DNA of 64,000 nt from Archaeoglobaceae archaeon (GTDB lineage Archaea > Halobacteriota > Archaeoglobi > Archaeoglobales > Archaeoglobaceae). Within the stretch, counting starts at the first letter, position 1. Each line of letters starts with the position of its first letter. The notes under the pieces are model-generated. The model ran no database searches. It was not told the origin of the DNA and saw only the letters and a program-made list of their open reading frames with translations. The position numbers were made by a program, and so were the translations under genes. Positions 4,360 to 63,918 of this stretch are shown here, in pieces. The DNA lies in assembly GCA_038893835.1 (NCBI GenBank), contig JAWAQR010000002.1:2632-66631 (forward strand), in the 5' to 3' direction.

Positions 4360-6123
4360 ATGGGGATGACAAATGTGTATAAAGAATTTATAAATTTGGT
4401 GCAGATGCCTGACGACGAAAGGAAAGCTAGGGCTATGGAAGAATTCTTCAGAAAGCTGAATACGATGGAATTGCCAGAGTATTTCAATTGGGCTAAAGAG
4501 GTATTTGAAGATATAAATGTAAAGGAGAGAGGTGATCAGACCGCGTTGCTTTGGGTGAATATCGATACTGGAGAAAAGAAGAAATTCAGCTATTCTGAAT
4601 TCGCAAAAGAAGGTAACAAGCTGATCAACGCATTGAGAGGAGAAGGGCTTCAAAAAGGAGAAAACATATACATGATGATTCCACTTTTCCCGGAGATCTG
4701 GTTTGCAACATATGCAACTGTAAAAGGTGGTTTTATAGGTGTTCCAACTGCAACAATAATGACAGTTCGTGATCTCGAATTCAGGTTCAGGACTTATCCG
4801 CCAGATGCAGTAATAGCAGATGAAAACTCTGCAAAGGTGATAGATGAAGCTTTGAAGAACGTTGGAATGCAACCAAAGGTTAAGATTGTTATCGGAGCTA
4901 GGAGTGGCTGGAAGAGTTACGATGAAGTCAAGAAAGAGAAAAGTGATGCTGAAGCTGCAAAAACAAAGTCAAATGACATAGTCTTCTGTTTCTTTACATC
5001 AGGAACAACTGGATTGCCAAAGAGAGTCGTTCATACAGCAACGAGCTATCCACTAGGTCATCTGAGTACTGCGATGATATTAAACCTGCATCCTGGCGAC
5101 ATTCACAACAATCTAAGCGCACCGGGATGGGCTAAGTACGCTTGGAGCAGTTTCTTCCCACCGCTTACAGTTGGAGCTACAACTACTGGCTTTTATCATG
5201 CTGGAAGACTGAATGGAGAACAGTATTTACAAGCCATACAAGATTATGGAGTAACAACGTTCTGCGCTCCACCAACTGCTTGGAGAATTTTCATGCTCAC
5301 CGATATTGGTAAATTCGACTTTAAGCTAAGAGAAGTCGTTAGCGCTGGCGAGCCTTTAAATCCAGAGATTTACGATAGATGGCTCAAGGAAACTGAAACA
5401 GAGATTAGGGACTTCTATGGTCAAACAGAAAGCACAGCAATGATCGGAAATCCTCCATGGTATAAGGGAGGGAAGATAGTCCCAGGCTCCTTTGGCAGAC
5501 CAACTTTCATGTACGACATAACACTCGTCGACGATGAAGGTAGAGAGATAACTAAGCCAAATGAAGTTGGGCACATAGTGGTTAAACTTGACAGATGGAG
5601 ACCAATTGGATTGTTCAAAGAATACATGGGGGATCCAGAAAAGACTGCAAAGGTCTTCGTTGGAAAATACTACTATACTGGAGATAAAGCTTTCTTCGAT
5701 GAAAAGGGTTATTGGTACTTCGTTGGCAGAGCTGATGACGTGATAAAGACCTCTGACTACAGAGTTGGACCATTTGAGGTTGAAAGCGCATTACTGGAGC
5801 ATCCAGCAGTTGCGGAATCTGCAGTAGTTGGCAGTCCACATCCAATAAGATATCAGCTTGTAAAGGCATTTGTTGTGCTTAAACCGGGTTATAAGCCATC
5901 AAGGGAGCTAGCTCTTGACTTATTCAAACACTGTAGAAACATTCTCGCCAGATATAAGATTCCGAGAATAATCGAATTCGTTCCAGAATTGCCAAAGACA
6001 ATAAGTGGTAAGATAAGAAGAGTTGAATTAAGAGCTATAGAGGAGGAAAAGAAGAAGAAAGGAGAACGCGGAGAACACGAGTACTTCTACGACGACTTCC
6101 CAGAACTCAAGACTGCAGGTTAA
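4360..6123 (+). CDS. AMP-forming acyl-CoA synthetase (medium-chain/ACSM-like)
   Basis: 587 aa with ANL-superfamily motifs FFTSGTTGLPKRVVH, YGQTES, YYTGDKAFFDEKGYWYFVGRADDVIK and C-terminal PKTISGKIRR (A10 lysine). Divergent from the MCM operon. Confidence 0.85.
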   Translation: MGMTNVYKEFINLVQMPDDERKARAMEEFFRKLNTMELPEYFNWAKEVFEDINVKERGDQTALLWVNIDTGEKKKFSYSEFAKEGNKLINALRGEGLQKGENIYMMIPLFPEIWFATYATVKGGFIGVPTATIMTVRDLEFRFRTYPPDAVIADENSAKVIDEALKNVGMQPKVKIVIGARSGWKSYDEVKKEKSDAEAAKTKSNDIVFCFFTSGTTGLPKRVVHTATSYPLGHLSTAMILNLHPGDIHNNLSAPGWAKYAWSSFFPPLTVGATTTGFYHAGRLNGEQYLQAIQDYGVTTFCAPPTAWRIFMLTDIGKFDFKLREVVSAGEPLNPEIYDRWLKETETEIRDFYGQTESTAMIGNPPWYKGGKIVPGSFGRPTFMYDITLVDDEGREITKPNEVGHIVVKLDRWRPIGLFKEYMGDPEKTAKVFVGKYYYTGDKAFFDEKGYWYFVGRADDVIKTSDYRVGPFEVESALLEHPAVAESAVVGSPHPIRYQLVKAFVVLKPGYKPSRELALDLFKHCRNILARYKIPRIIEFVPELPKTISGKIRRVELRAIEEEKKKKGERGEHEYFYDDFPELKTAG

Positions 6124-6137
6124 TTTTTTAATTTTTT

Positions 6138-6950
6138 ATGTTTACTGGTATTTTTTATCATGAAAGCTTCAGTAGGAGAAGCTATCTAACCTTGGGTAAC
6201 AGGTTGAGAGATTTTCCAAAAGCTTTTGAGCTCTTGGAAGGAAGAAGGGTGAAAATATTTGAATCTCCTGAAGTCAGTCTCAAGCTGGTTAGGAAAGTGC
6301 ATTCGGAAAGGATGATTGAGGCAGTTTTTAAAGAGAAACTATGTTCAACAGCTCTAAGATCTGCGGGAGGTGTTGTTAAAGCTTCTGAAATGGTCTTTTG
6401 CAATCATTTGAAGAACGCATTTTGCTACATAGGCACTGGAGGTCATCATGCCGGAAGGGATTATTTCTGGGGCTATTGTTGCTTCAACGACGTTGTTTTG
6501 GCCATTGAAAATATAGTTGAAAAATTTGGAAGCAAGAGATTTGCAATCATCGACACGGATGCGCATCACGGTGATGGGACCAGGGAACTGGTTAGGGATG
6601 AAGTTCTTCATTTTTGCATTTGTGACAGAGATTATGAGTCGAGGGATGGCTTGAAGATAGATAGAAGCTATTTTACAAACGACTACTTTGACTGCATTGA
6701 AGAATTCGTAGAAAAATGTGAAAAATTCTCTCCAGAGTTGATTTTCTGGTACTTTGGCCATGACACTCACGTGGGAGATTACGCTGACATCGGGATGAAA
6801 GTGGAAGATTATGTGAAAATTGCAAAAATTTTGAAAGAATGTGCTGAGAAAGTTTGTAGTGGTAAGCTTGTAACGGTTCTTGGCGGTGGCAGTCTGCCTG
6901 AAATAGCAAGGGATTCGACGATTGCAATAATTAGGGAACTCAGTGAGTAA
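6138..6950 (+). CDS. short histone-deacetylase/AcuC/acetylpolyamine-amidohydrolase superfamily protein
   Basis: 270 aa with GTGGHHAGRD (catalytic HH), IIDTDAHHGDGT (Zn ligands) and FGHDTHVGD. It starts 14 nt after the acyl-CoA synthetase stop. Confidence 0.75.
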   Translation: MFTGIFYHESFSRRSYLTLGNRLRDFPKAFELLEGRRVKIFESPEVSLKLVRKVHSERMIEAVFKEKLCSTALRSAGGVVKASEMVFCNHLKNAFCYIGTGGHHAGRDYFWGYCCFNDVVLAIENIVEKFGSKRFAIIDTDAHHGDGTRELVRDEVLHFCICDRDYESRDGLKIDRSYFTNDYFDCIEEFVEKCEKFSPELIFWYFGHDTHVGDYADIGMKVEDYVKIAKILKECAEKVCSGKLVTVLGGGSLPEIARDSTIAIIRELSE

Positions 6951-7770
6951 TTCCAAAGAAATTCCTTGGAGTGAACTTTTTCTTTTTCAAAAATTCCTCA
7001 CATCTTTCCCTAAACTCGTTTGAGATCCAGATTAGGGAAGTTAGATCTCTTGCAATCTCGTAGCTTGACATGGCAAATTCGGTCCAAAAATTGAGTCCTG
7101 ATTTTATCACTCTAAAAGCCTGTGGACTGCAGTTTTCCAGAATCTCATTTGCTAAATCCTTCGCAGCTCTCTCAAGTTCTTCATCTTCCACAACCTTGTT
7201 TATCAACCCAATTCTAAACGCCTCCTCTGCATCTATTATTTTTCCGGTTAGCAAAAGCTCTCTAGCTCTTCTCTCTCCAATTAAAAGCGGTAGGAGCTGA
7301 ACCCCAAGTCCCATTGCAGTGGAACCAACTCTTACCTCTGGCTGACCAAATTTTGCATTCTTGGAAGCTATGACAAAGTCACATGCCATCGCGATTTCAT
7401 TTCCTCCAGCTACGCAATAACCACGTACTGCTGCAATCGTAGGTTTTCCAACACTTCGAAGAAAGCGAACAACATCTAGATAACTTTCAAACCATTTTAT
7501 CGCATTCTCGAAATCTAGAGAAATCAACTCCCTGATATCTGCTCCTACACAGAAATTTTTTGTTTTTGTCGAAATTATGATTGCAAAAGCTTTTTCATCA
7601 GCTTCAAAAAGAGCTTTATGCAATTCTTTCAAAAGTTTCAATCTGAGTGTGTTCATTTCCGAATCTTTGAGATATATCCAGGCAATCTTTCCATCGAGCT
7701 GTAATTCGACACCCATGATGAAAGTCTGTTCGAAGTATTTAATACCTTCGAATAAAAAACTCTTTTCCAT
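6940..7770 (-). CDS. enoyl-CoA hydratase/isomerase (crotonase) family protein
   Basis: 276 aa with a crotonase fold pattern: FCVGADIRE, AAVRGYCVAGGNEIAMACDFVIAS, FGQPEVRVG. An alternative start at M19 (7716) would remove the 32-nt overlap with the upstream gene. Confidence 0.8.
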   Translation of the reverse strand: MEKSFLFEGIKYFEQTFIMGVELQLDGKIAWIYLKDSEMNTLRLKLLKELHKALFEADEKAFAIIISTKTKNFCVGADIRELISLDFENAIKWFESYLDVVRFLRSVGKPTIAAVRGYCVAGGNEIAMACDFVIASKNAKFGQPEVRVGSTAMGLGVQLLPLLIGERRARELLLTGKIIDAEEAFRIGLINKVVEDEELERAAKDLANEILENCSPQAFRVIKSGLNFWTEFAMSSYEIARDLTSLIWISNEFRERCEEFLKKKKFTPRNFFGITH

Positions 7771-34333: not shown

Positions 34334-35632
34334 TCTTAAATCCACAACTCTCCTTGCTTTTCCCATGGATCTCTCTATTCTACCTTTTTCAACCAGCTCG
34401 ACATTGGTTCTTAGCATTAGTTCCCTCTGCAATGCTTTTTGTATTTTCTCCTGCAATCTTTTCAAGTCTTCAAGCTCTCCTGTAAAGAACTCATCCCTTA
34501 CCTCAACTCTTATAGTTATCTCATCCAGAGATCCTTTTCTAGTCAGCAATATCTGGAAGTTATCCCCCACTTCAGGTATTTGCATCAAAACATGCTCTAT
34601 CTGGCTTGGAAAAACGTTTACTCCACGAACTATGAGCATGTCATCGCTTCTCCCGAGAATTCTCATTAGTCTTGGATGTGTCCTTCCACAGGCACATTTT
34701 TCCGTTTCGATGATTGTTATGTCTCCCGTCCTATATCTCAATATCGGCATCGCTTCCTTAGTAAGGGGAGTTAACACGAGTTCTCCCCTTTCCCCTTCTC
34801 CAACTCTTTCCCCAGTCTCTGGGTCTATTATCTCGACGAAATAGTGATCGATCCAGATATGCAACCCCTGCTGCTCTTTACATTCAAAAGCAACTCCAGG
34901 TCCATTCATTTCGCTTAAACCATAGCTGTCATATGCCTTTATTCCAAAAGCATCCTCGAGCCTTTTTCTAGTATTCTCGCTCCAAGGTTCAGCACCAAAG
35001 CAACCAAATTTCAGCTTCAATTTATCCAGCAAACCCAGCTCTTCGGCAACTTCCTTAATGTGCAAAGCGTAGCTGGGTGTTGAATGAATCGCAGTTGTGC
35101 AGAAATCGACCATGTACTGTATTTGTCTTTCCGTATTTCCAACACCTGAAGGAATTGTTACAGCTCCAATTTTCTCCGCTCCATACTGGAATCCCAGTCC
35201 TCCTGTGAAAAAGGCGTAATTCACTATGTTCTGGAAAACATCTCCCTTCCGAAGTCCTACCATGTAAAGACATCTTGCAACCATATTTGCCCAAGTTTCT
35301 ATGTCTTTGGCCGTATATCCTACAACTTTTGGCTTTCCAGAAGTGCCACTCGAGGTGTGTATCCTTACAATCTCACTCTTTGGCACCGCAAACAATCCAA
35401 AAGGATAGTTTTCAGCGAAGTGTTCCTTTGTCGTGAAAGGTATTTTTTCAACGTCATCGAAGCTTTTTATATCATCTGGAGTGACGTTTGCGGCTTTCAT
35501 TCTTTTTTTAAAGAAAAAAACATTTTCATAAGCTCTCTTTATTGTTTGTTTTAATCTTTTAAACTGCAACTCTTCAAGCTCTTCCTTTGGAAGACATTCT
35601 TCCCTATCCCAGAACTCCTCGCTCCATGGCAT
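34325..35632 (-). CDS. paaK: phenylacetate-CoA ligase (PaaK) / coenzyme F390 synthetase family
   Basis: 435 aa with HTSSGTSGKPKVVGYT, YGLSEMNGPGVAFEC and RYRTGDITIIETEKCACGRTHPRLMRILGRSDDMLIVRGVNVFPSQIE. Confidence 0.85.
   Translation of the reverse strand: MPWSEEFWDREECLPKEELEELQFKRLKQTIKRAYENVFFFKKRMKAANVTPDDIKSFDDVEKIPFTTKEHFAENYPFGLFAVPKSEIVRIHTSSGTSGKPKVVGYTAKDIETWANMVARCLYMVGLRKGDVFQNIVNYAFFTGGLGFQYGAEKIGAVTIPSGVGNTERQIQYMVDFCTTAIHSTPSYALHIKEVAEELGLLDKLKLKFGCFGAEPWSENTRKRLEDAFGIKAYDSYGLSEMNGPGVAFECKEQQGLHIWIDHYFVEIIDPETGERVGEGERGELVLTPLTKEAMPILRYRTGDITIIETEKCACGRTHPRLMRILGRSDDMLIVRGVNVFPSQIEHVLMQIPEVGDNFQILLTRKGSLDEITIRVEVRDEFFTGELEDLKRLQEKIQKALQRELMLRTNVELVEKGRIERSMGKARRVVDLRSI
34578..34666. 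repeat. 89-nt tract in paaK-1, inverted copy of 52801-52889 in paaK-2 (88/89 identical)
   Basis: The reverse complement of 34578-34666 equals 52801-52889 except for one base (CGT vs CGC). Adjacent codons coding the same amino acids differ at many synonymous sites. Confidence 0.9.
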
Positions 35633-50940: not shown

Positions 50941-51569
50941 GGAACGTAAAAATAATAAACGGTGTTCCGGCTACTAAGAGTAAATATGGGAGCCATTATG
51001 GTGAGAGAATATTCTTTCTGGGAAATGAAAAGTTCAGAGAATGGGTACCTTGGAGGAGTAAACTATCTGCATTAATCCTAAAAGGCTATGAAATCGACTT
51101 CAGAGGGGATGAAAAAATTCTCTACCTTGGTGCAGCAAGTGGGACAACTTTAAGTCATTTAGCAGACATAGTGGATGAGGGGATAATATATGCTGTTGAG
51201 TACTCAGCGAAGCCTTTCATAAAGTTACTCGAGCTCGCAAAGGAAAGAGATAACATTATACCTCTTTTCTTCGATGCAAGCAAACCTTGGCTGTATAGCG
51301 GAATCGTGGAAAAGGTTGATTTCATATACCAAGACATAGCTCAAAAGAATCAGATTGAGATTCTAAAAACAAATGCTGATTTCTTCTTAAAAGATAACGG
51401 TATGTTTTTGATCATGATAAAGGCTAAAAGCATAGATTCGACTGCCGAGAGTGGAGAAATTTTCTCTCTCATAACCCAGAAAATTTCTAAGGATTTTTCA
51501 ATTCTTGAAAAAGGTTCTCTAGAACCATATCATAAAGACCATATGTTCGTACTTGGGGTGAAGATATGA
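50937..51569 (+). CDS. flpA: fibrillarin-like rRNA/tRNA 2'-O-methyltransferase
   Basis: 210 aa with the SAM motif KILYLGAASGTTLSHLADIV and typical fibrillarin length. Confidence 0.95.
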   Translation: MRNVKIINGVPATKSKYGSHYGERIFFLGNEKFREWVPWRSKLSALILKGYEIDFRGDEKILYLGAASGTTLSHLADIVDEGIIYAVEYSAKPFIKLLELAKERDNIIPLFFDASKPWLYSGIVEKVDFIYQDIAQKNQIEILKTNADFFLKDNGMFLIMIKAKSIDSTAESGEIFSLITQKISKDFSILEKGSLEPYHKDHMFVLGVKI

Positions 51570-51847
51570 GATTCAGAATAGTTAGGATCGAGTTGAAGGA
51601 AGAAGATGTTCTTGTTTTTATGAAAAGAGTAGATAAAACAATACCGCAAAGAATACCGCAGAGAGTGGAAATAGAGAGACCAGAACAGATAATAGAATTC
51701 GGCTTACAGCTGGGAATGAATTTAGCGAAAAGATTTGAAGACATCTTTGGAGTTGATGCCTTCGTTACGTTAAAATACGATGAGTATATCACGAAGGAGC
51801 TGAAAGTTGGAGATTTCGTTGACATAGAAATAAAGGAGGTGGAATGA
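51566..51847 (+). CDS. small hypothetical protein
   Basis: 93-aa ORF that overlaps both neighbours by 4 nt (ATGA), so it appears to be translated as part of the operon. Confidence 0.5.
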   Translation: MRFRIVRIELKEEDVLVFMKRVDKTIPQRIPQRVEIERPEQIIEFGLQLGMNLAKRFEDIFGVDAFVTLKYDEYITKELKVGDFVDIEIKEVE

Positions 51848-53142
51848 TGTTCTGGAACCCGAGCATTGAAAGGATGCCTGTGGCAGATTTGAAGGAAATA
51901 CAGGAAAAGAAGCTGAGAGCACTCGTCAACAACGTTTATCAATATTCTCCGTTCTATAGAAGGAAGTTCAAAGAGCTGGGCATAGATCCCTCCCAGATAA
52001 GGAGCCTCGAAGACCTTCCAAAACTTCCTTTTACGAGAAAACAGGATTTGAGAGATAATTATCCCTTTGGAATGTTCGCGGTGCCAGTGTCACAGATAGT
52101 TAGGTTTCACGCTTCTAGCGGGACTACTGGAAAACCAACTCTGGTTGGATACACGGAAAACGACATAAGAGTTTGGGTTGAAAGTCTGTGCAGAGGACTG
52201 GTTAGCTGTGGAGTTACTCATGAAGATATAGTTCAAATAGCATACGGCTATGGCCTCTTCACCGGCGGACTCGGTTTCCATTATGCTGTCGAAAAAATCG
52301 GAGCCACAGCTTTGCCAATATCAACTGGAAACACTGCAAGACAGATTGAACTTATGAAAGATCTAGGTGTAACTGTAATAGCATGCACACCATCTTACAT
52401 GCTCTACATGTCAGAATACGCAGAGAAAATGGGAACTAGCTTAAAGGATACAAAGCTGAGAATCGGAATTTTTGGTGCAGAACCTTGGAGCGAAGAAACT
52501 AGGAAAAGAATTGAATTAAAAACAGGATTAACTGCCTATGACGTCTATGGAACTTCAGAACTAAGTGGCCCTCTTTTCACAGAATGCGTCGAAAGAAATG
52601 GGCTCCATGTATGGGCAGATCATTTTCTGATAGAGGCAATAGATCCGAAGACCGGTGAGAACGTTGGAGAAGGAGAAAAAGGGGAACTGGTGGTAACTAC
52701 GCTGAGCAAAGAAGCGATGCCTCTAATAAGATGGAGAACTGGAGATATAACGATAATAGAGACTGAAAAGTGTAATTGTGGTAGAACTCACCCAAGAATA
52801 ATGAGAATTCTCGGGAGAAGCGATGACATGCTCATAGTTCGCGGAGTAAACGTTTTTCCAAGCCAGATAGAGCATGTTTTGATGCAAATTCCAGAGCTTG
52901 GAGAACATTACATGATAATACTAGACAGAGTAGAGAATCTGGATGAAATGACGATTCAGGTTGAACTAAGCGAAAGAGTTTCAGTGGATAAGCCAGCAGA
53001 TATACTGAATCTAAAAAAGAGGGTTGAGGAAAAGCTTAAGAGTGTTCTGGGAGTACATGCAAAAGTTGAAATCGTAAATCCTGGAACTCTTCAAAGATTT
53101 GAAGGTAAAGCGAAAAGGGTTATAGATAAGAGAAAGATATGA
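51844..53142 (+). CDS. paaK: phenylacetate-CoA ligase (PaaK) family, second paralog
   Basis: 432 aa with HASSGTTGKPTLVGYT, YGTSELSGPLFTEC and RWRTGDITIIETEKCNCGRTHPRIMRILGRSDDMLIVRGVNVFPSQIE. Confidence 0.85.
   Translation: MMFWNPSIERMPVADLKEIQEKKLRALVNNVYQYSPFYRRKFKELGIDPSQIRSLEDLPKLPFTRKQDLRDNYPFGMFAVPVSQIVRFHASSGTTGKPTLVGYTENDIRVWVESLCRGLVSCGVTHEDIVQIAYGYGLFTGGLGFHYAVEKIGATALPISTGNTARQIELMKDLGVTVIACTPSYMLYMSEYAEKMGTSLKDTKLRIGIFGAEPWSEETRKRIELKTGLTAYDVYGTSELSGPLFTECVERNGLHVWADHFLIEAIDPKTGENVGEGEKGELVVTTLSKEAMPLIRWRTGDITIIETEKCNCGRTHPRIMRILGRSDDMLIVRGVNVFPSQIEHVLMQIPELGEHYMIILDRVENLDEMTIQVELSERVSVDKPADILNLKKRVEEKLKSVLGVHAKVEIVNPGTLQRFEGKAKRVIDKRKI
52801..52889. repeat. 89-nt tract in paaK-2, inverted copy of 34578-34666
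   Basis: See the partner repeat. Confidence 0.9.
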
Positions 53143-53143
53143 G

Positions 53144-53566
53144 GTGATACTTGTGATAAAACAAATTTCTGTGTTCGTGGAAAACAAGCCTGGAAGACTT
53201 GCTTCTGTAACTGGGGTCCTATTTGAAAAGGGAATAAATCTCAGAGCATTTATGATTGCGGATGCTGGAGACTTTGGGATAATCAGAATGGTTGTGGACA
53301 GGACTGATGACGCTTACAAAGCTCTAAAGGATGCCGGATTTACAGTTGCAATCAACGATGTCTTGGCAGTTGAAGTTGAGGATAAGCCGGGGGAATTGTA
53401 TAAAATAGCGAAAGCCTTAGGAGATGAGGGTGTAAACATTGAATACGTTTACGCTTTTACCTCGGAAAAACATAAGGCACTCATAATATTCCGCGTCGAT
53501 GATTTGGAGAGAGCGAGAGAAATACTAGAGAGAATAGGTGTACTTTTCAAAGGGAGAATTGACTAG
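53144..53566 (+). CDS. tandem ACT-domain protein
   Basis: 140 aa with two ACT-like beta-alpha-beta-beta-alpha-beta units (ISVFVENKPGRLA...; LAVEVEDKPGELY...). The usual partner of archaeal PaaK genes. Confidence 0.8.
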   Translation: MILVIKQISVFVENKPGRLASVTGVLFEKGINLRAFMIADAGDFGIIRMVVDRTDDAYKALKDAGFTVAINDVLAVEVEDKPGELYKIAKALGDEGVNIEYVYAFTSEKHKALIIFRVDDLERAREILERIGVLFKGRID

Positions 53567-53603
53567 TTTTGACAGAAAAATTTTATAAGCTAGAGATCAA
53601 AAA

Positions 53604-53945
53604 ATGAGCATGCTTTCAATCAATCCAACTCTGGTTGTTAGAGACAAACCCTATAGCAAGGAGGAATTGATGGAAGCTCTGCGCTTGGCAATATCTGCTG
53701 AGCTGGATGCAATTAGCCTTTACGAGCAGATGGCAAGATTTAGTCCAGATGAGAACTGCAAAAAGATATTTCTGGATGTTGCAAGGGAAGAAAAAGCACA
53801 TGTTGGCGAGTTCTTAGCACTTCTTCTGACCATGGATTCGGAACAAGTAAGTGAGCTAAAAAGCGGTTTTCGAGAAGTGGAGGAGAAAACTGGGATAAAG
53901 ACTGCTCTGGATGGAGGAGATCAAAGATTCACGAAAAGGGAGTAA
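53604..53945 (+). CDS. ferritin-like protein of the encapsulated-ferritin (EncFtn/Flp) type, stand-alone
   Basis: 113 aa: MLSINPTLVVRDKPYSKEELMEALRLAISAELDAISLYEQMARFSPDE...LDVAREEKAHVGEF. It has the E...Y...ExxH di-iron pattern of EncFtn and resembles the N-terminal domain of the fused archaeal encapsulin as I recall it. Confidence 0.75.
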   Translation: MSMLSINPTLVVRDKPYSKEELMEALRLAISAELDAISLYEQMARFSPDENCKKIFLDVAREEKAHVGEFLALLLTMDSEQVSELKSGFREVEEKTGIKTALDGGDQRFTKRE

Positions 53946-53946
53946 A

Positions 53947-54088
53947 ATGGTCGTAGAAATTTTAAAGGACATTTTCACAGGTGGAATCATAGTTACGCCA
54001 TCGATTGAGGAAAAAGTCATCGTTTTTTGCCAACACACCAAGTGCTGCTGACATAGTAGTTGGATAGGAGCTGGTAGTGCTCGAGTGA
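53947..54088 (+). pseudogene. remnant of the C-terminal end of an encapsulin (HK97-fold shell) gene
   Basis: Frame 1 gives MVVEILKDIFTGGIIVTPSIEEKVIVF. After a +1 shift in the T6 run 54023-54028 it reads FANTPSAADIVVG, then TAG, then ELVVLE-TGA. Compare the T. maritima encapsulin C-terminus [36 protein letters not shown]...PEALILLKF. Confidence 0.6.
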
Positions 54089-54402
54089 TGGATCGCATAA
54101 ACTTCGATGCGGAATTCATTCCACTTATTTTAACTGGAGAAAAGAGGACAACGATAAGAAAAGGGATCAGAAGTTATCCTGTTGGAAAAGTTGTAGAATT
54201 AACGGTTGAAAACAAACCCTTCGCGATGGCTAAAGTTAAAAAAGTAGTTGTGAAGAGAGTTTCAGAGCTGAGTGATGAAGATGCTAGATCCGATGGTTTT
54301 TCAAGTAAGGAAGAACTTTTGAACGCTTTAAAAAGAATTTATGGAGAGATACTAGATTCTGAGTTCGTTACAATCGTGCATTTTGAAGTTTTGCAGCCTT
54401 AA
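54085..54402 (+). CDS. ASCH-domain protein
   Basis: 105 aa. The N-terminal FDAEFIPLILTGEKRTTIRKG is the characteristic ASCH (PUA-like) opening. Confidence 0.75.
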   Translation: MMDRINFDAEFIPLILTGEKRTTIRKGIRSYPVGKVVELTVENKPFAMAKVKKVVVKRVSELSDEDARSDGFSSKEELLNALKRIYGEILDSEFVTIVHFEVLQP

Positions 54403-54454
54403 AATCTTTGATCGACAATAAAACTTTAAAAAAATACACACCATTCTTAAAGCG

Positions 54455-55738
54455 ATGCGAATAAGAGTTGAGTTTCACGATCTGGACAAAAGTTTGAAGA
54501 ACTTTGTCCTCGAAGGGGTGTGTTCACAAATAACTTATTCTCTTATTACTGTAACTATCATAAGCTCATATCTCGCAACGACCAAAATTCCCCCTTTTTT
54601 GCTCAGCGTTCTGATATCGATTCCTCACACTACAACTGTTGCACAGATAATTTCGGCGAAGTTTGTAGAGAAAAGAAATAGGAAAAAGATATCGATCTAT
54701 GTTAGTTTAATAGCCAAAATAACCCTTATAGGAATAGCAGTGAACTCCTTTTTTGGAGGAGATTACGAAGTTCTATTCTTCGCAATTCTTTACCTTATCT
54801 TCAACATTTGCGAAGACGTCTACACAGTTACTTGGAGTTCTTGGTCACGGGATTTGATTTCTGGAGGTAAAAGGGGGGAAATTTTTTCCAAAAGATCAGC
54901 TTATGGTAGAATTTTTGCCATTTTTGCAATATTGCCACAGATATTCGTTTTTGATCGAATGGATAAAACCGGTTTCTCCGTCCTATTCCTAACTTCTGCC
55001 CTTATAGGCCTTATAGGAGTCTATTTTTTGAGGAACGTCGAGAATGTCAGATCGAGTAGAATAAGCGAGATAAGGTTGATAGAACCAATGAGGAACATCA
55101 ATTTCCTGAAACTAATTTTTTCCGTCTCCATATTCCTGTTCGCCATAAGCTCTGCTAGAACTTTTTTTACAGTCTTTTTAATCAATTGTCTGCAGTATTC
55201 CCTTTCAACAGTCCTTTTTCTAGCTTTCTTAGCCCATCTCAGCTCCATATACTCCTTCCGTATTTCAGGCATTTTTTCAGACAATCTTGGAAATAAGCCC
55301 CTCTTTACCCTATCTTTTCTGACCTTTTCAATTTCAGCAATCCTTTTTGCATTTTCAACACAGAAATCTTTTTGGATTCTCGCAATCGCATATATTCTTC
55401 ACGGCTTCTACACTTCCGCCCCAACAATTGCTCTAACAAATGCAATAGCAGACTTGACTTATAAGAAGTATTCTGCACCATATTACGCTTTGAGTAACTG
55501 GTTACAGGACACTTTTTCAGCCATTGGCTGCGTCTTTGCGGGAATTTTAGTCTCTTCCCTTTACGAGAGTGGAGATATTGCTTTTCGAGTTCTCTTCATT
55601 TTTTCCGCTATTCTTTCTCTTCTTTCATTCTTCACAATAAGACTCTACGATGAATATGCGCCATCGCAATGGAATGCAATGTTAAAGATGCCAAAGTTAA
55701 TAATTCAGGACATTGCAAGGATTTTTAGAATTGGCTAA
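54455..55738 (+). CDS. MFS-type transporter
   Basis: 427 aa with about 12 hydrophobic helices. No substrate inference is possible. Confidence 0.7.
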   Translation: MRIRVEFHDLDKSLKNFVLEGVCSQITYSLITVTIISSYLATTKIPPFLLSVLISIPHTTTVAQIISAKFVEKRNRKKISIYVSLIAKITLIGIAVNSFFGGDYEVLFFAILYLIFNICEDVYTVTWSSWSRDLISGGKRGEIFSKRSAYGRIFAIFAILPQIFVFDRMDKTGFSVLFLTSALIGLIGVYFLRNVENVRSSRISEIRLIEPMRNINFLKLIFSVSIFLFAISSARTFFTVFLINCLQYSLSTVLFLAFLAHLSSIYSFRISGIFSDNLGNKPLFTLSFLTFSISAILFAFSTQKSFWILAIAYILHGFYTSAPTIALTNAIADLTYKKYSAPYYALSNWLQDTFSAIGCVFAGILVSSLYESGDIAFRVLFIFSAILSLLSFFTIRLYDEYAPSQWNAMLKMPKLIIQDIARIFRIG

Positions 55739-55775
55739 GGATTTAAATCAAAACCGAAATCCCTGCAAATCTTCT

Positions 55776-56272
55776 TTACCACTTCTGAAGGATGTCATCA
55801 ACTTCATCCGCAAAATCCTCTTCCCCTAACCTTGCAGACGTATGCACCAAGATAAGCTCTATTAGCTCCTGCAAGAAGCATTAAGGGAAGAGAGTGTATG
55901 TTCAAACAAAATCCTAGTTCCGCAAAGGTGTTCCGTTCACTGGTTGAAATCCGGAAATGGAGCAGTGTTTTAAATATCCTCCTTCAAGCGTAACCCTGCC
56001 CATCCCACAATCCTTTATAAAATCAACAGCTTTACAGAACTCCTCCAAGTTCATAAAACTCCAAATTTCCACTTTCAATCATGGAATTCGTTATTTCCGG
56101 ATGAACCTTTATATCAGATGGTATTCCGAAAAGTGTTGAAGTTAAATCCCTAGAACAGTTATTTTGAGAATTCTCTCAACTTCTTTCGCTTTATCTTTAC
56201 CCAACCTTTTTTCAAGAATTTCAATAATTTTATTTTTATTTCTAACAATTTCTTTAAGTGTCTCTTCTATCA
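55776..56272 (-). pseudogene. multiply frameshifted gene remnant; C-terminal pieces resemble BioB/ThiH-family radical SAM enzymes (tentative)
   Basis: Minus-strand pieces in three frames: MIEETLKEIVRNKNKIIEILEKRLG...; ...LFGIPSDIKVHPEITNSMIESGNLEFYELGGVL*; AVDFIKDCGMGRVTLEGGYLKHCSISGFQPVNGTPLRN*; LMLLAGANRAYLGAYV...; ...ARLGEEDFADEVDDILQKW*. No CxxxCxxC survives. Confidence 0.35.
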
Positions 56273-56356
56273 TCTCGCCTCAATTGAAAAGAAGGGATAT
56301 AAAATCTTCTCAAAAGCTTTAGAAATCTAAAAATGTCCAAAATAATCCTACAATAA

Positions 56357-56430
56357 AAGCCGCCGGCGGGATTCGAACCCGCGACCTGGTGATTACAAGT
56401 CACCCGCTCTGCCAGCTGAGCCACGGCGGC
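56357..56430 (-). tRNA. tRNA-Thr (anticodon TGT)
   Basis: The reverse complement folds as GCCGCCG-TG-GCTC..GAGC-G-GGTGA-CTTGTAA-TCACC-AGGTC-GCGGG-TTCGAAT-CCCGC-CGGCGGC-T. Confidence 0.9.
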
Positions 56431-56501
56431 GTTTAAGCATCGTATCTTTTTAGTTTATTAAACTTTTTGCCTTGAATCGAGCGAAAGATTTTTATGCTCA
56501 A

Positions 56502-56519
56502 ATTTAGGTTAACCTAAAT
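56502..56519. promoter_or_regulatory. 18-bp perfect palindrome ATTTAGGTTAACCTAAAT overlapping the feoA start; candidate metalloregulator operator
   Basis: Perfect dyad checked by hand. It lies just downstream of the TATA-like GATTTTTATGC (56487-56497) and covers the feoA ATG (56518). The half-site TTAGGTT equals the outer heptamer of the DtxR/IdeR iron box. Confidence 0.5.
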
Positions 56520-56739
56520 GATGATTTCTATGGACTTAGCTCGTGGAAAAGTCAGGATAATAGAGATAAGAGGTGGTAGAGGATTTGTAAGAAGGCTCAT
56601 CGATATGGGTCTAGCTCCGGGACAAGTTGTCGAAGTTATATCAAACGGCCCACCAGTTGTTGTAAAGGTGAGAGACTCCGAGATAGCCATTGGAAAAGGA
56701 GTTGCTAAAAAAGTTTTTGTAGAGGAAGTAAATGTATAA
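56518..56739 (+). CDS. feoA: ferrous iron transport protein A
   Basis: 73 aa, SH3-like FeoA pattern (GKVRIIEIRGGRGFVRRLIDMGLAPGQVVEVI). Overlaps feoB. Confidence 0.85.
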   Translation: MMISMDLARGKVRIIEIRGGRGFVRRLIDMGLAPGQVVEVISNGPPVVVKVRDSEIAIGKGVAKKVFVEEVNV

Positions 56740-58711
56740 GATTTTCCTGATTTCTCAACCGAATTCAGGAAAAACTACTCTCTTCAACAAGCTAACCAGT
56801 CAGCAATGTTACGTTGCAAACTGGCCTGGAAAGACTGTGGAAGTTTTCCAAGCAAAAATAGAACATCATGGAAAAGAGATTTTGGTAGTTGATTTACCGG
56901 GAATAAACAGTTTTAAAACTCTAAGTAAAGAGGAGGAGATAACAAAGGAGTACATATTCAAAGGTAAGGATGGTGTCGCGGTTATTGTCGTGAATGGGAA
57001 TGCTCTTTTCAAATCCCTATACTTCGCAATACAAGTGCTAGAGTTGAAAAGCGAAGCTGTCGTTGTCATAAACAAGGCAGATTTTCTGGAAAAGAGCGGA
57101 ATACATGTAAATGTCGAAATTCTTGCTAAACATCTTGGAGTCGACGTAATCCTTATCAGCGCCCTTCGCGGAATTGGCTTAAACCAGCTCATAGATCGAT
57201 GTCTCGACGTTTTAGAAGGGAGAAAGAAGAATTCAAAATTAAAGATAAATTACGGAAGCTTAGAGCCTTTTATTGAAAAAGCTGAAAAAATTGTGGGAGA
57301 TAGGGGTAGTGCCATAAAGGCGCTGGAAGGGGATGAGTTCATTCTCACAAGACTGCAAGAGGAAGAAAGGAGAGAAATAGAGAATATTGCTAGAGAGATC
57401 TCAGAGATTTATGGTAATCCTGAAGAGATAATCGCAATGCATCGATTTAGGTTTGTGGAAGAGCTAATTAGTTCTTCTATCAAAGAAGTAAAAATTTCAA
57501 AGGTCTCTTTTGGTAAAAAGTTAGATGAAATATTTTTCAGCAATTTTGGTCCAATTTTGGCAATTCTAATTCTCTTCTTCGCAATTTTTTCCTCCTTTTC
57601 AATAAACACAGGATTTCCGCTGAATTTGCTGATGAGGTCTATTGGTAATGAAGGGTTCGCTGAAACTATTGAAAGTTATAGCATTGTGGGGATCATTTCC
57701 AGAATCTTCGATTCCATTTCGGAATTTCTCAATGAGAATTTACCGGATTCCATGTGGAAAAGTTTATTGATAGATGGAATAATTCCCGGAGTTGGTGTGA
57801 TCGCATCCTTCTTCCCCCTGATTTTGATTTTGAACCTCCTCATGTCCTTCATAGAAGATAGCGGTTTAATGTCTAGACTTGCTGTAACAATGGACCGTCT
57901 CTTTGCAAATTTTGGTTTGACAGGTAAATCCTTTTTCCCTTTTTGCATAAATTTAGCCTGTAACGTTCCCGGAGTTATGGCTTCAAGAATACTAGAAACT
58001 GACTCCGAAAGACTTAGAGTTGCCATATCTTCTCCCTTCGTGCTATGTCAGGCGAGATTGCTTGTAATAATTCTTTTCACAGCTTTCTTTTTTGCTTCTC
58101 CCCTTCTCCAGAGTGTAGTAGTGATCTTCATTTACCTACTCTCCGCACTACTATTCCTTTTTTTCGCCGCAATTTACAGAGAAATATTCAAGAAGGAGAA
58201 ATCAGAATTGTTGATAGAACTGCCACCATATCATTTTCCAAGCCTTAGAGTGAGCTGGTGGATAACCTGGACTAGGAGCAAGGCTTTTATATTTAAAGTT
58301 GGAAAGATAATACTTCTGTTCTCAATTTTCATATGGTTTTTAAACTCTTTTGGACTGACAGTCTTCCTCGGAAAATTGATCGCAAAAGCATTTTCTCCAA
58401 TCGGAATTGAAAGTTCCGAGCTCGGTTTTGCTTTGCTAGTAGGTTTTATAGCGAAGGAAATGATAATATCTTCTCTAGCCATATCTTTTGGAACTTCCAA
58501 CATCTTTGAAATCCTCTCACAACTCGGATTGTCAATGGCACAGGCTTTTGCGCTGATAATCTTTATTTCCTTTTACACACCATGCATAGCAACTCTAGCT
58601 GCAATCTATTACGAAATTAGAAACTTGAAAATTCTCCTGATTTCCATAGTTTTCCAGCTCCTCTTTGCATATTTCCTGACAATAGTAACTTATACGATTC
58701 TAACGCTTTAG
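56732..58711 (+). CDS. feoB: ferrous iron transport protein B
   Basis: 659 aa with an N-terminal G domain (SQPNSGKTTLFN, DLPG, NKAD) followed by a polytopic membrane domain. Confidence 0.95.
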   Translation: MYKIFLISQPNSGKTTLFNKLTSQQCYVANWPGKTVEVFQAKIEHHGKEILVVDLPGINSFKTLSKEEEITKEYIFKGKDGVAVIVVNGNALFKSLYFAIQVLELKSEAVVVINKADFLEKSGIHVNVEILAKHLGVDVILISALRGIGLNQLIDRCLDVLEGRKKNSKLKINYGSLEPFIEKAEKIVGDRGSAIKALEGDEFILTRLQEEERREIENIAREISEIYGNPEEIIAMHRFRFVEELISSSIKEVKISKVSFGKKLDEIFFSNFGPILAILILFFAIFSSFSINTGFPLNLLMRSIGNEGFAETIESYSIVGIISRIFDSISEFLNENLPDSMWKSLLIDGIIPGVGVIASFFPLILILNLLMSFIEDSGLMSRLAVTMDRLFANFGLTGKSFFPFCINLACNVPGVMASRILETDSERLRVAISSPFVLCQARLLVIILFTAFFFASPLLQSVVVIFIYLLSALLFLFFAAIYREIFKKEKSELLIELPPYHFPSLRVSWWITWTRSKAFIFKVGKIILLFSIFIWFLNSFGLTVFLGKLIAKAFSPIGIESSELGFALLVGFIAKEMIISSLAISFGTSNIFEILSQLGLSMAQAFALIIFISFYTPCIATLAAIYYEIRNLKILLISIVFQLLFAYFLTIVTYTILTL

Positions 58712-61929: not shown

Positions 61930-62004
61930 GGGCCCGTGGCTCAGCCAGGATAGAGCGACGGCCTTCTAAGCCGTAGATCGCGGGTTCAAATCCCGCCGGG
62001 TCCG
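61930..62004 (+). tRNA. tRNA-Arg (anticodon TCT)
   Basis: GGGCCCG-TG-GCTC..GAGC-G-ACGGC-CTTCTAA-GCCGT-AGATC-GCGGG-TTCAAAT-CCCGC-CGGGTCC-G. TATA-like CTTTATAAG lies about 25 nt upstream. Confidence 0.9.
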
Positions 62005-62005
62005 C

Positions 62006-63845: not shown

Positions 63846-63918
63846 TGGGCTCGGCCGGATTCGAACCGGCGATCTCCGCCGTGTAAGGGCGGTGTCATAA
63901 CCGCTAGACCACGAGCCC
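63846..63918 (-). tRNA. tRNA-Val (anticodon TAC)
   Basis: The reverse complement is GGGCTCG-TG-GTCT..TGAC-A-CCGCC-CTTACAC-GGCGG-AGATC-GCCGG-TTCGAAT-CCGGC-CGAGCCC-A. A T6 run follows on the minus strand. Confidence 0.9.

Follow-up and report, generated by a model that had tools for sequence, protein, structure and literature searches.

EncFtn (encapsulated-ferritin-like) domains are thought to need an encapsulin shell for iron storage; the isolated domain oxidizes iron and has no cavity. In the 64,000-nucleotide stretch of Archaeoglobaceae DNA analysed here (the window), a small gene for such a domain stands by itself upstream of an ASCH-domain gene. What is the DNA that lies between the two genes, and how did the domain come to be left without a compartment? 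An initial annotation had traced both to an ancestral fused gene whose shell part was lost. Our analysis leads to the same reading: with a probability that we put at about 0.92, the locus is a decaying fusion encapsulin gene of the Pyrococcus furiosus type (336 aa), in which the EncFtn part is intact, the shell part is mostly deleted and the loss is recent. The support for this reading comes from metagenome assemblies throughout.

The EncFtn reading frame and the DNA behind it

As the initial annotation had proposed, the 113-aa open reading frame (ORF) encodes an EncFtn-type domain (Table 1). It matches the P. furiosus EncFtn structure (PDB 5N5E; E=7.5e-44) and, in the fusion protein of that species (2E0Z), residues 1-102 (E=8.7e-44), both at ~80% identity, and also Myxococcus xanthus EncC (E=8e-08) and EncB (E=3e-06). 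The Pfam Rubrerythrin profile passes its cut-off on this ORF (34.6 bits against 22.8), and the EncFtn-like profile stays under its own (22.3 bits against 27), as it does on the intact fused orthologues. The ferroxidase-centre residues E33, Y40, E63 and H66 (113-aa numbering) are kept, in columns that are invariant in 16 homologues, and the stretch DVAREEKAH fits the archaeal fusion-FLP pattern DxxxEExA/TH (PMC11202242). The ATG at 53610 (MLSINPT...), a start common to all homologues, is likely the true one and would give a product of 111 aa. Counted from there, nt 1-316 of the fused ancestor, which cover the EncFtn domain and the linker behind it, are found at positions 53610-53925.

The putative promoter includes a TATA box ~25 nt upstream of this ATG, a spacing that suggests a leaderless transcript. 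Because the block AAA.TTTTATA is unchanged between the window and three intact orthologues (L013-L015), promoter function is probable, and the 111-aa product would still be transcribed from the conserved TATA box.

The DNA downstream of the ORF had been described as the C-terminal remnant of an encapsulin, and the homology searches bear this out. All the elements listed at the time are present, namely MVVEILKDIFTGGIIVTPSIEEKVIVF, FANTPSAADIVVG, the TAG, ELVVLE with its stop, and the T6 run between them. Piecewise mapping onto L013, L014 and L015 accounts for 54 of ~231 shell codons, spread over three frames and interrupted by one TAG. The description nevertheless needs correction at several points. 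The remnant starts earlier than had been thought, with six codons (KIHEKG) that were missed and whose frame differs both from that of the ORF and from that of the segment after it. To the deletion, frameshift, nonsense codon and second deletion already named, a further 1-nt deletion has to be added. The total loss, put initially at roughly 200 shell codons, comes to ~177 (442 bp plus 90 bp). Finally, the position of the TAG is occupied by Gln in most orthologues, as had been stated, and by His in some.

Because the remnant already begins at 53924, in a third frame, the last six codons of the ORF (RFTKRE and a stop) are shell sequence read out of frame, and the stop itself is made by the frameshift that the 442-bp deletion caused. 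The edge of this deletion is ambiguous by a few to ~20 nt: two nucleotides at the junction can be assigned to either side, and an alternative parse runs through AAAGATTC (nt 737-744). For the 90-bp deletion, AGCT is found on both sides of the corresponding points in L014. The last segment ends in the stop of the ancestral gene, which overlaps the ASCH start in GTGATG, as described initially.

Table 1. Features of the EncFtn locus and its flanks, in window positions; nt and codon numbers refer to the fused gene.
Feature	Position	Strand	Evidence or comparison
PaaK-like AMP-binding gene	51844-53142		
ACT-pair protein gene	53144-53566		
Putative archaeal promoter: purine-rich BRE-like stretch and TATA box TTTATAA (53582-53588)	53573..53589	+	read from sequence
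ORF, 113 aa, stand-alone EncFtn domain	53604..53945	+	intact; homology search
Junction of 442-bp deletion; ~nt 317-758 lost (shell codons ~106-252)	53924..53925	+	mapping, junction sequences
Segment B: KIHEKG, shell codons 253-258, nt 757-774	53924..53941	+	tblastn, mapping
101-bp stretch present in window and L001, deleted in L002 and L003	53926..54026	+	alignment
1-nt deletion, Gly259 codon, A/G homopolymer context	53942..53943	+	window AAGGGAGTAAAATGG against L093 AAAGGAGGAAAAATGG
Segment C: KMVVEILKDIFTGGIIVTPSIEEKVIV, begins KMVVE, shell codons 260-286, nt 778-858	53944..54024	+	tblastn, mapping
T6 run with 1-nt insertion	54023..54028	+	comparison; T5 (GTGGTTTTTGCG) in closest intact orthologues
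Segment D: ANTPSAADIVVG, stop, EL; begins ANTPS, shell codons 287-302, nt 859-906	54026..54073	+	mapping
Nonsense TAG (CAG>TAG), position Gln300	54065-54067	+	orthologues mostly CAG/CAA, some His
Junction of in-frame 90-bp deletion, shell codons 303-332	54073..54074	+	mapping
Segment E: VVLE and TGA (54086-54088), last four codons and stop, nt 997-1011	54074..54088	+	mapping
ASCH-domain gene, 104 aa from ATG (GTG at 54085 also possible)	54088..54402	+	PF04266, E=7.6e-18
MFS transporter gene	54455-55738		

The assignment to the encapsulin family was assessed at profile level, a check that had been set beforehand. The 47-aa frame-corrected remnant of the initial annotation matches residues 269-313 of 2E0Z (E=8.5e-12, ~70% identity) and scores 20 bits, under the cut-off, against Pfam Linocin_M18. 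With the six missed codons added, the 54-aa reconstruction reaches 27.6 bits (E=2.1e-06), above the gathering score of 24.3, and aligns at profile positions 184-233 of 253. Intact Archaeoglobaceae orthologues find the remnant by tblastn with E ~1e-10 to 1e-11. A whole HK97-fold shell would require an uninterrupted ORF of ~230-270 aa, which 53924-54088 does not contain; the remaining 54 codons cannot form such a shell, and the stretch is a pseudogene fragment. Nor is a route into a shell recognisable for the window EncFtn: the 442-bp deletion has broken the fusion, the C-terminal tail ...DGGDQRFTKRE of the ORF bears no targeting-peptide motif, and the 64-kb window holds no other encapsulin shell gene.

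Two further candidates were considered for the remnant and rejected. It is not a family 4 A-domain encapsulin, being no ORF and giving only Linocin_M18 in Pfam searches at E up to 10. A TATA-like AAATTTTAAAGG within it (~53958-53969) might have served as a new ASCH promoter; against this, ~125 nt separate it from the start of ASCH, and L002 and L003, two related assemblies described below, have lost it.

Same-population assemblies, fused orthologues and the age of the loss

Three other assemblies carry nearly the same locus. L001, from a Logan assembly of SRR27730019, aligns with the window over 3.5 kb at 99.86% identity and repeats every lesion; of its five differences from the window, one is non-synonymous and falls inside the remnant. 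In L002 and L003 (NCBI MAGs GCA_038895115.1 and GCA_038887755.1), the stretches that align with the window do so at 99.7-100% identity. Both MAGs are likewise without the shell DNA that the window has lost, and a further 101 bp of the remnant is gone (Table 1), so that their EncFtn ORF extends to 118 aa and ends in GGDQIANTPSAADIVVG (IANTPSAADIVVG) and a stop. Among the four assemblies the EncFtn part has accumulated zero substitutions. The extra loss in L002 and L003 argues that the remnant is dispensable and that its erosion is ongoing within one population.

This bears directly on whether the remnant has acquired a new role, as a small peptide (the 34-aa ORF MVVEIL...CC, 53947-54051), as a spacer or leader for ASCH translation, or as an RNA element. 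We consider this highly improbable. The 34-aa frame does begin with ATG, and the remnant does lie directly upstream of an ASCH gene whose original translational coupling is gone; however, strains of the same population have lost 101 bp that take in the start codon and the greater part of that ORF, and nothing else differs; moreover, one of the few differences between the window and L001 alters an amino acid within the remnant. Furthermore, an Rfam scan of 53000-57000 returned a tRNA-Thr only, with no match to the remnant, and nothing comparable was found 3' of the other stand-alone EncFtn loci examined, shell fossils being confined to the window and L001. Because sister strains are already without part of it, the remnant appears to be non-functional DNA.

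The same assemblies make it hardly credible that the shell gene is in fact intact and that metagenome assembly collapsed ~0.5 kb and introduced the indels. All the data are short-read metagenome assemblies and two of the lesions fall in homopolymer runs, yet five separate lesions would each need to be errors, and the TAG is a substitution rather than an indel. The same state in the separate assembly of SRR27730019, together with the further deletion in L002 and L003, makes an assembly error very unlikely.

The intact form of the gene is found elsewhere in the family. A genome scan, which took one genome per species, recovered an uninterrupted 336-aa gene with both Rubrerythrin/EncFtn and Linocin_M18 domains in three Archaeoglobaceae/Archaeoglobales MAGs (L013, L014 and L015), and a second protein search with a full-length query added some 25 fused clusters in Archaeoglobaceae. 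The closest of these agree with the window at 97 of 105 residues in EncFtn and at 40 of 47 in the remnant, and several carry the NCBI annotation 'family 1 encapsulin nanocompartment shell protein'. A first protein search, with the 113-aa ORF, had returned short homologues only and missed all fused proteins. A single ORF with an N-terminal EncFtn domain and a C-terminal shell, as in a fusion-FLP, is present in L013-L015, L093-L096 and P0121-P0142 and absent from the window. An exact-match scan of JGI metagenome contigs with a 25-mer across the EncFtn 3' end returned nothing; an intact allele from the same species did not turn up.

L013 is collinear with the window over ~9 kb and shows the same order of genes, PaaK-like, ACT, fused gene, ASCH and MFS, with an intact 336-aa gene at the very place where the initial annotation had suggested looking for one. 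Its fused gene ends in VVLE and a TGA that overlaps the ASCH ATG (GAGTGATGG), as does the remnant in the window. More broadly, the Archaeoglobaceae fused genes (among them L013, L014, L015 and P0122-P0125) are orthologues with 84-92% amino-acid identity to the window in EncFtn; downstream ASCH and stop/start overlap are shared with the window, as are the outer neighbours in L013, and what separates them from the window is that each remains one uninterrupted 336-aa ORF. The syntenic comparison supports the proposed ancestry in a single fused gene of the P. furiosus type.

Because such fused orthologues exist, including one at a collinear locus, the ancestor was a fusion rather than a two-gene operon in which a separate EncFtn gene with a targeting peptide accompanied an encapsulin gene and the EncFtn ORF had always been independent. 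The operon would fit the many archaeal homologues that stand alone at ~100 aa, but we regard it as most improbable: every shell-bearing Archaeoglobaceae homologue found is one fused ORF of 335-340 aa, the window EncFtn stays in register with the fused gene to nt 316, past the EncFtn fold and into the linker (ALDGGDQ), its natural stop is the product of a frameshift, and its tail is without a targeting-peptide motif.

The loss of the shell can be placed in time by comparing amino-acid changes. When the window is compared with intact orthologues over the remnant codons, dN is 0.08-0.15; intact genes compared with one another over these codons give 0.09-0.17. The remnant thus has no surplus of amino-acid changes: it was under selection for nearly the whole of its divergence, and by this measure the shell loss is recent relative to species divergence. 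Synonymous sites are saturated in most between-species pairs, which leaves the dN comparisons and one pair of stand-alone genes (dS 0.74) as usable. A neighbour-joining tree built on the EncFtn domain places the window together with the fused L013 and L014 (bootstrap 100).

For the fused-gene origin we propose the following course. The ancestor was a 336-aa protein that began with an EncFtn (Flp) domain and continued into the shell protein of a family 1 encapsulin. The 442-bp deletion took shell codons ~106-252 and shifted the frame, so that EncFtn now stops after six out-of-frame codons; the shell part also suffered the 1-nt deletion, the 1-nt insertion in the T run, the CAG>TAG change and the 90-bp deletion, events to which no order is assigned. 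The EncFtn part still has its putative promoter, its start codon and all residues of the ferroxidase centre.

Stand-alone EncFtn genes and the ASCH partner

The next-closest homologues of the window EncFtn show what may lie at the end of this course. In P0002, P0003, L016 and L017 (76-82% identity), a 101-aa EncFtn adjoins the ASCH gene, and its stop overlaps the ASCH start (...AAG CTT GAG TGA TGG); neither a shell gene nor a shell remnant is present at these EncFtn-ASCH loci. The junction looks like a clean in-frame excision, from the Leu-Asp of the linker to the C-terminal Leu-Glu. In the EncFtn tree this orphan clade is separate from the window with moderate support, which implies that the shell was lost at least twice. 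For the pair L004-L017, dN is 0.045 and dS 0.74 (dN/dS 0.06), and other orphan pairs give dN of 0.06-0.08 with saturated dS; judged by these rates, the orphan-clade EncFtn is under strong purifying selection, and a shell-less EncFtn can accordingly persist. In the window lineage itself selection on the orphan EncFtn is not measurable, the loss being too recent and the four assemblies differing by zero substitutions there. The initial annotation had offered a choice between a recent casualty and a shell-independent role; the first is correct for this locus insofar as the loss is recent, and related lineages keep a shell-less EncFtn under purifying selection.

Stand-alone forms are common beyond this clade. 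At 80 species-representative loci, ~30 homologues are fused and ~50 stand alone, no shell gene being detected near the latter in the flanks examined (up to 6 kb), and the two forms are interleaved on the EncFtn-domain tree. One stand-alone group (L009-L012; P0005, 106 aa) is 79% identical to the window EncFtn, has no shell gene nearby and sits in a Thermococcales-like oxidative-stress cluster with rubrerythrins, superoxide reductase, rubredoxin and a PF1197-like oxidoreductase. In Vulcanisaeta sp. JCM 14467 (L035, 5977-7124), a fused gene is split into the overlapping ORFs 5977-6834 and 6726-7124. This may be a second case of a frameshifted copy, or else an error of sequencing, the isolate genome being a draft.

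The ASCH gene is a conserved neighbour. At all Archaeoglobaceae loci examined (window, L001-L008, L013-L017 and L093-L096) it comes next after EncFtn or the fused gene, at most of them with overlapping stop and start. The outer neighbours vary: ACT/PaaK with MFS, peptidase M20, or HATPase_c with an AF2028-like gene. The Thermococcales and Crenarchaeota loci yielded no ASCH homologue. From this conservation of gene order, the EncFtn or fused gene and ASCH may form a functional two-gene module. Counted upstream from the ASCH start, the EncFtn stop is 142 nt away in the window and 20 nt away in L002; in the orphan clade the two overlap. We speculate that successive deletions might be favoured because they restore this overlap.

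Set side by side, the loci would form a series from the intact fusion (L013) through the window and the strains with the extra 101-bp deletion to the clean EncFtn-ASCH pair, whose 101-aa EncFtn, with its stop overlapping the ASCH start and under purifying selection, would be the likely end state. A broader proposal, which we hold tentatively and at somewhat less than even odds, is that stand-alone archaeal EncFtn of the 's-FLP' type arise repeatedly from fusion encapsulins by shell deletion and are then selected, here with a translationally coupled ASCH, the window being the first captured intermediate.

Other features of the region were noted in passing. The ferrous-iron uptake genes feoA (56518-56739) and feoB (56732-58711) lie ~2.4 kb downstream of the EncFtn gene and give it an iron-related setting; L002 has FeoA as well. 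Part of the PaaK-like AMP-binding gene next to the ACT gene has a second paralogue at 34572-34867 (- strand), with ~79% nucleotide identity. Between the fibrillarin and PaaK-like genes lies a 93-aa ORF without a Pfam match (51566-51847); a 93-aa gene, likewise without a match, is called at the same position in L002. The window also carries tRNA-Thr(TGT) at 56358-56430, tRNA-Arg(TCT) at 61930-62005 and tRNA-Val(TAC) at 63846-63918.

Relation to known ferritin-like systems

Both archaeal fusion-FLPs and short 'non-encapsulated' FLPs have already been recognised (PMC8346489, PMC11202242). The families involved have been described before, and what has happened here is ordinary gene decay; the locus is no new kind of system. 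Its nearest characterised counterpart is P. furiosus PF1192, a 'fusion-FLP' family 1 encapsulin (2E0Z for the shell, 5N5E for EncFtn). The two have a common two-domain ancestry, carry the DxxxEExAH motif that is characteristic of fusion-FLPs in archaea (PMC11202242) and end in an identical ...VVLE. Unlike in PF1192, the shell of the window is destroyed, with 177 codons deleted, two frameshifts and a stop; no compartment is possible and the EncFtn is separate. Taken out of the P. furiosus protein, the EncFtn domain (residues 1-99) assembles into a thermostable decamer that has ferroxidase activity and no storage cavity (bioRxiv 10.1101/431494). By analogy with that domain, to which it is ~80% identical, the window product is predicted to be a soluble annular decamer, active as a ferroxidase and without an enclosed iron store.

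The predicted product is of a similar type to the short FLPs ('s-FLP'), first classed as non-encapsulated and including Nitrosomonas europaea NE0167 (PDB 3K6C) and archaeal stand-alone proteins of ~100 aa. Both have an EncFtn fold of ~100 aa, neither has a shell gene in its vicinity, and a targeting peptide is not recognisable in either, although NE0167 itself is only distantly similar to the window ORF (E=0.05). The orphan clade (P0002, P0003, L016 and L017) and the window also share the pairing of EncFtn with ASCH. Unlike the s-FLPs, the window still bears a trace of the lost shell, and its fusion origin is directly visible. A different kind of truncated HK97-fold shell from hyperthermophilic archaea is known in the family 4 'A-domain' encapsulins of Thermococcales (~100 aa, PF08967; PMC8346489). 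Those are intact conserved ORFs paired with enzymes, whereas the window fragment, ~54 codons from the C-terminal part, is frameshifted, bears a stop and is being deleted.

What is distinctive is that the path from a fusion encapsulin to an EncFtn that stands alone is documented step by step, with the decay caught in mid-process. The finding carries a caution for annotation: the tails of the 113-aa and 118-aa 'ferritin family proteins' are out-of-frame or in-frame shell debris. It also supplies a natural set of genotypes, intact, half-decayed, further decayed and clean orphan, for studying EncFtn without a compartment. The locus shows directly that the shell of a fusion encapsulin can be lost and the frame of the ferritin-like domain remain open; together with the persistence of shell-less EncFtn in related species, this links the fusion-FLP and 'non-encapsulated' short FLP classes by descent. 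If repeated origin followed by selection proves true, EncFtn would have a shell-independent job in these anaerobes, for example as a soluble ferroxidase or as a scavenger of oxygen or peroxide.
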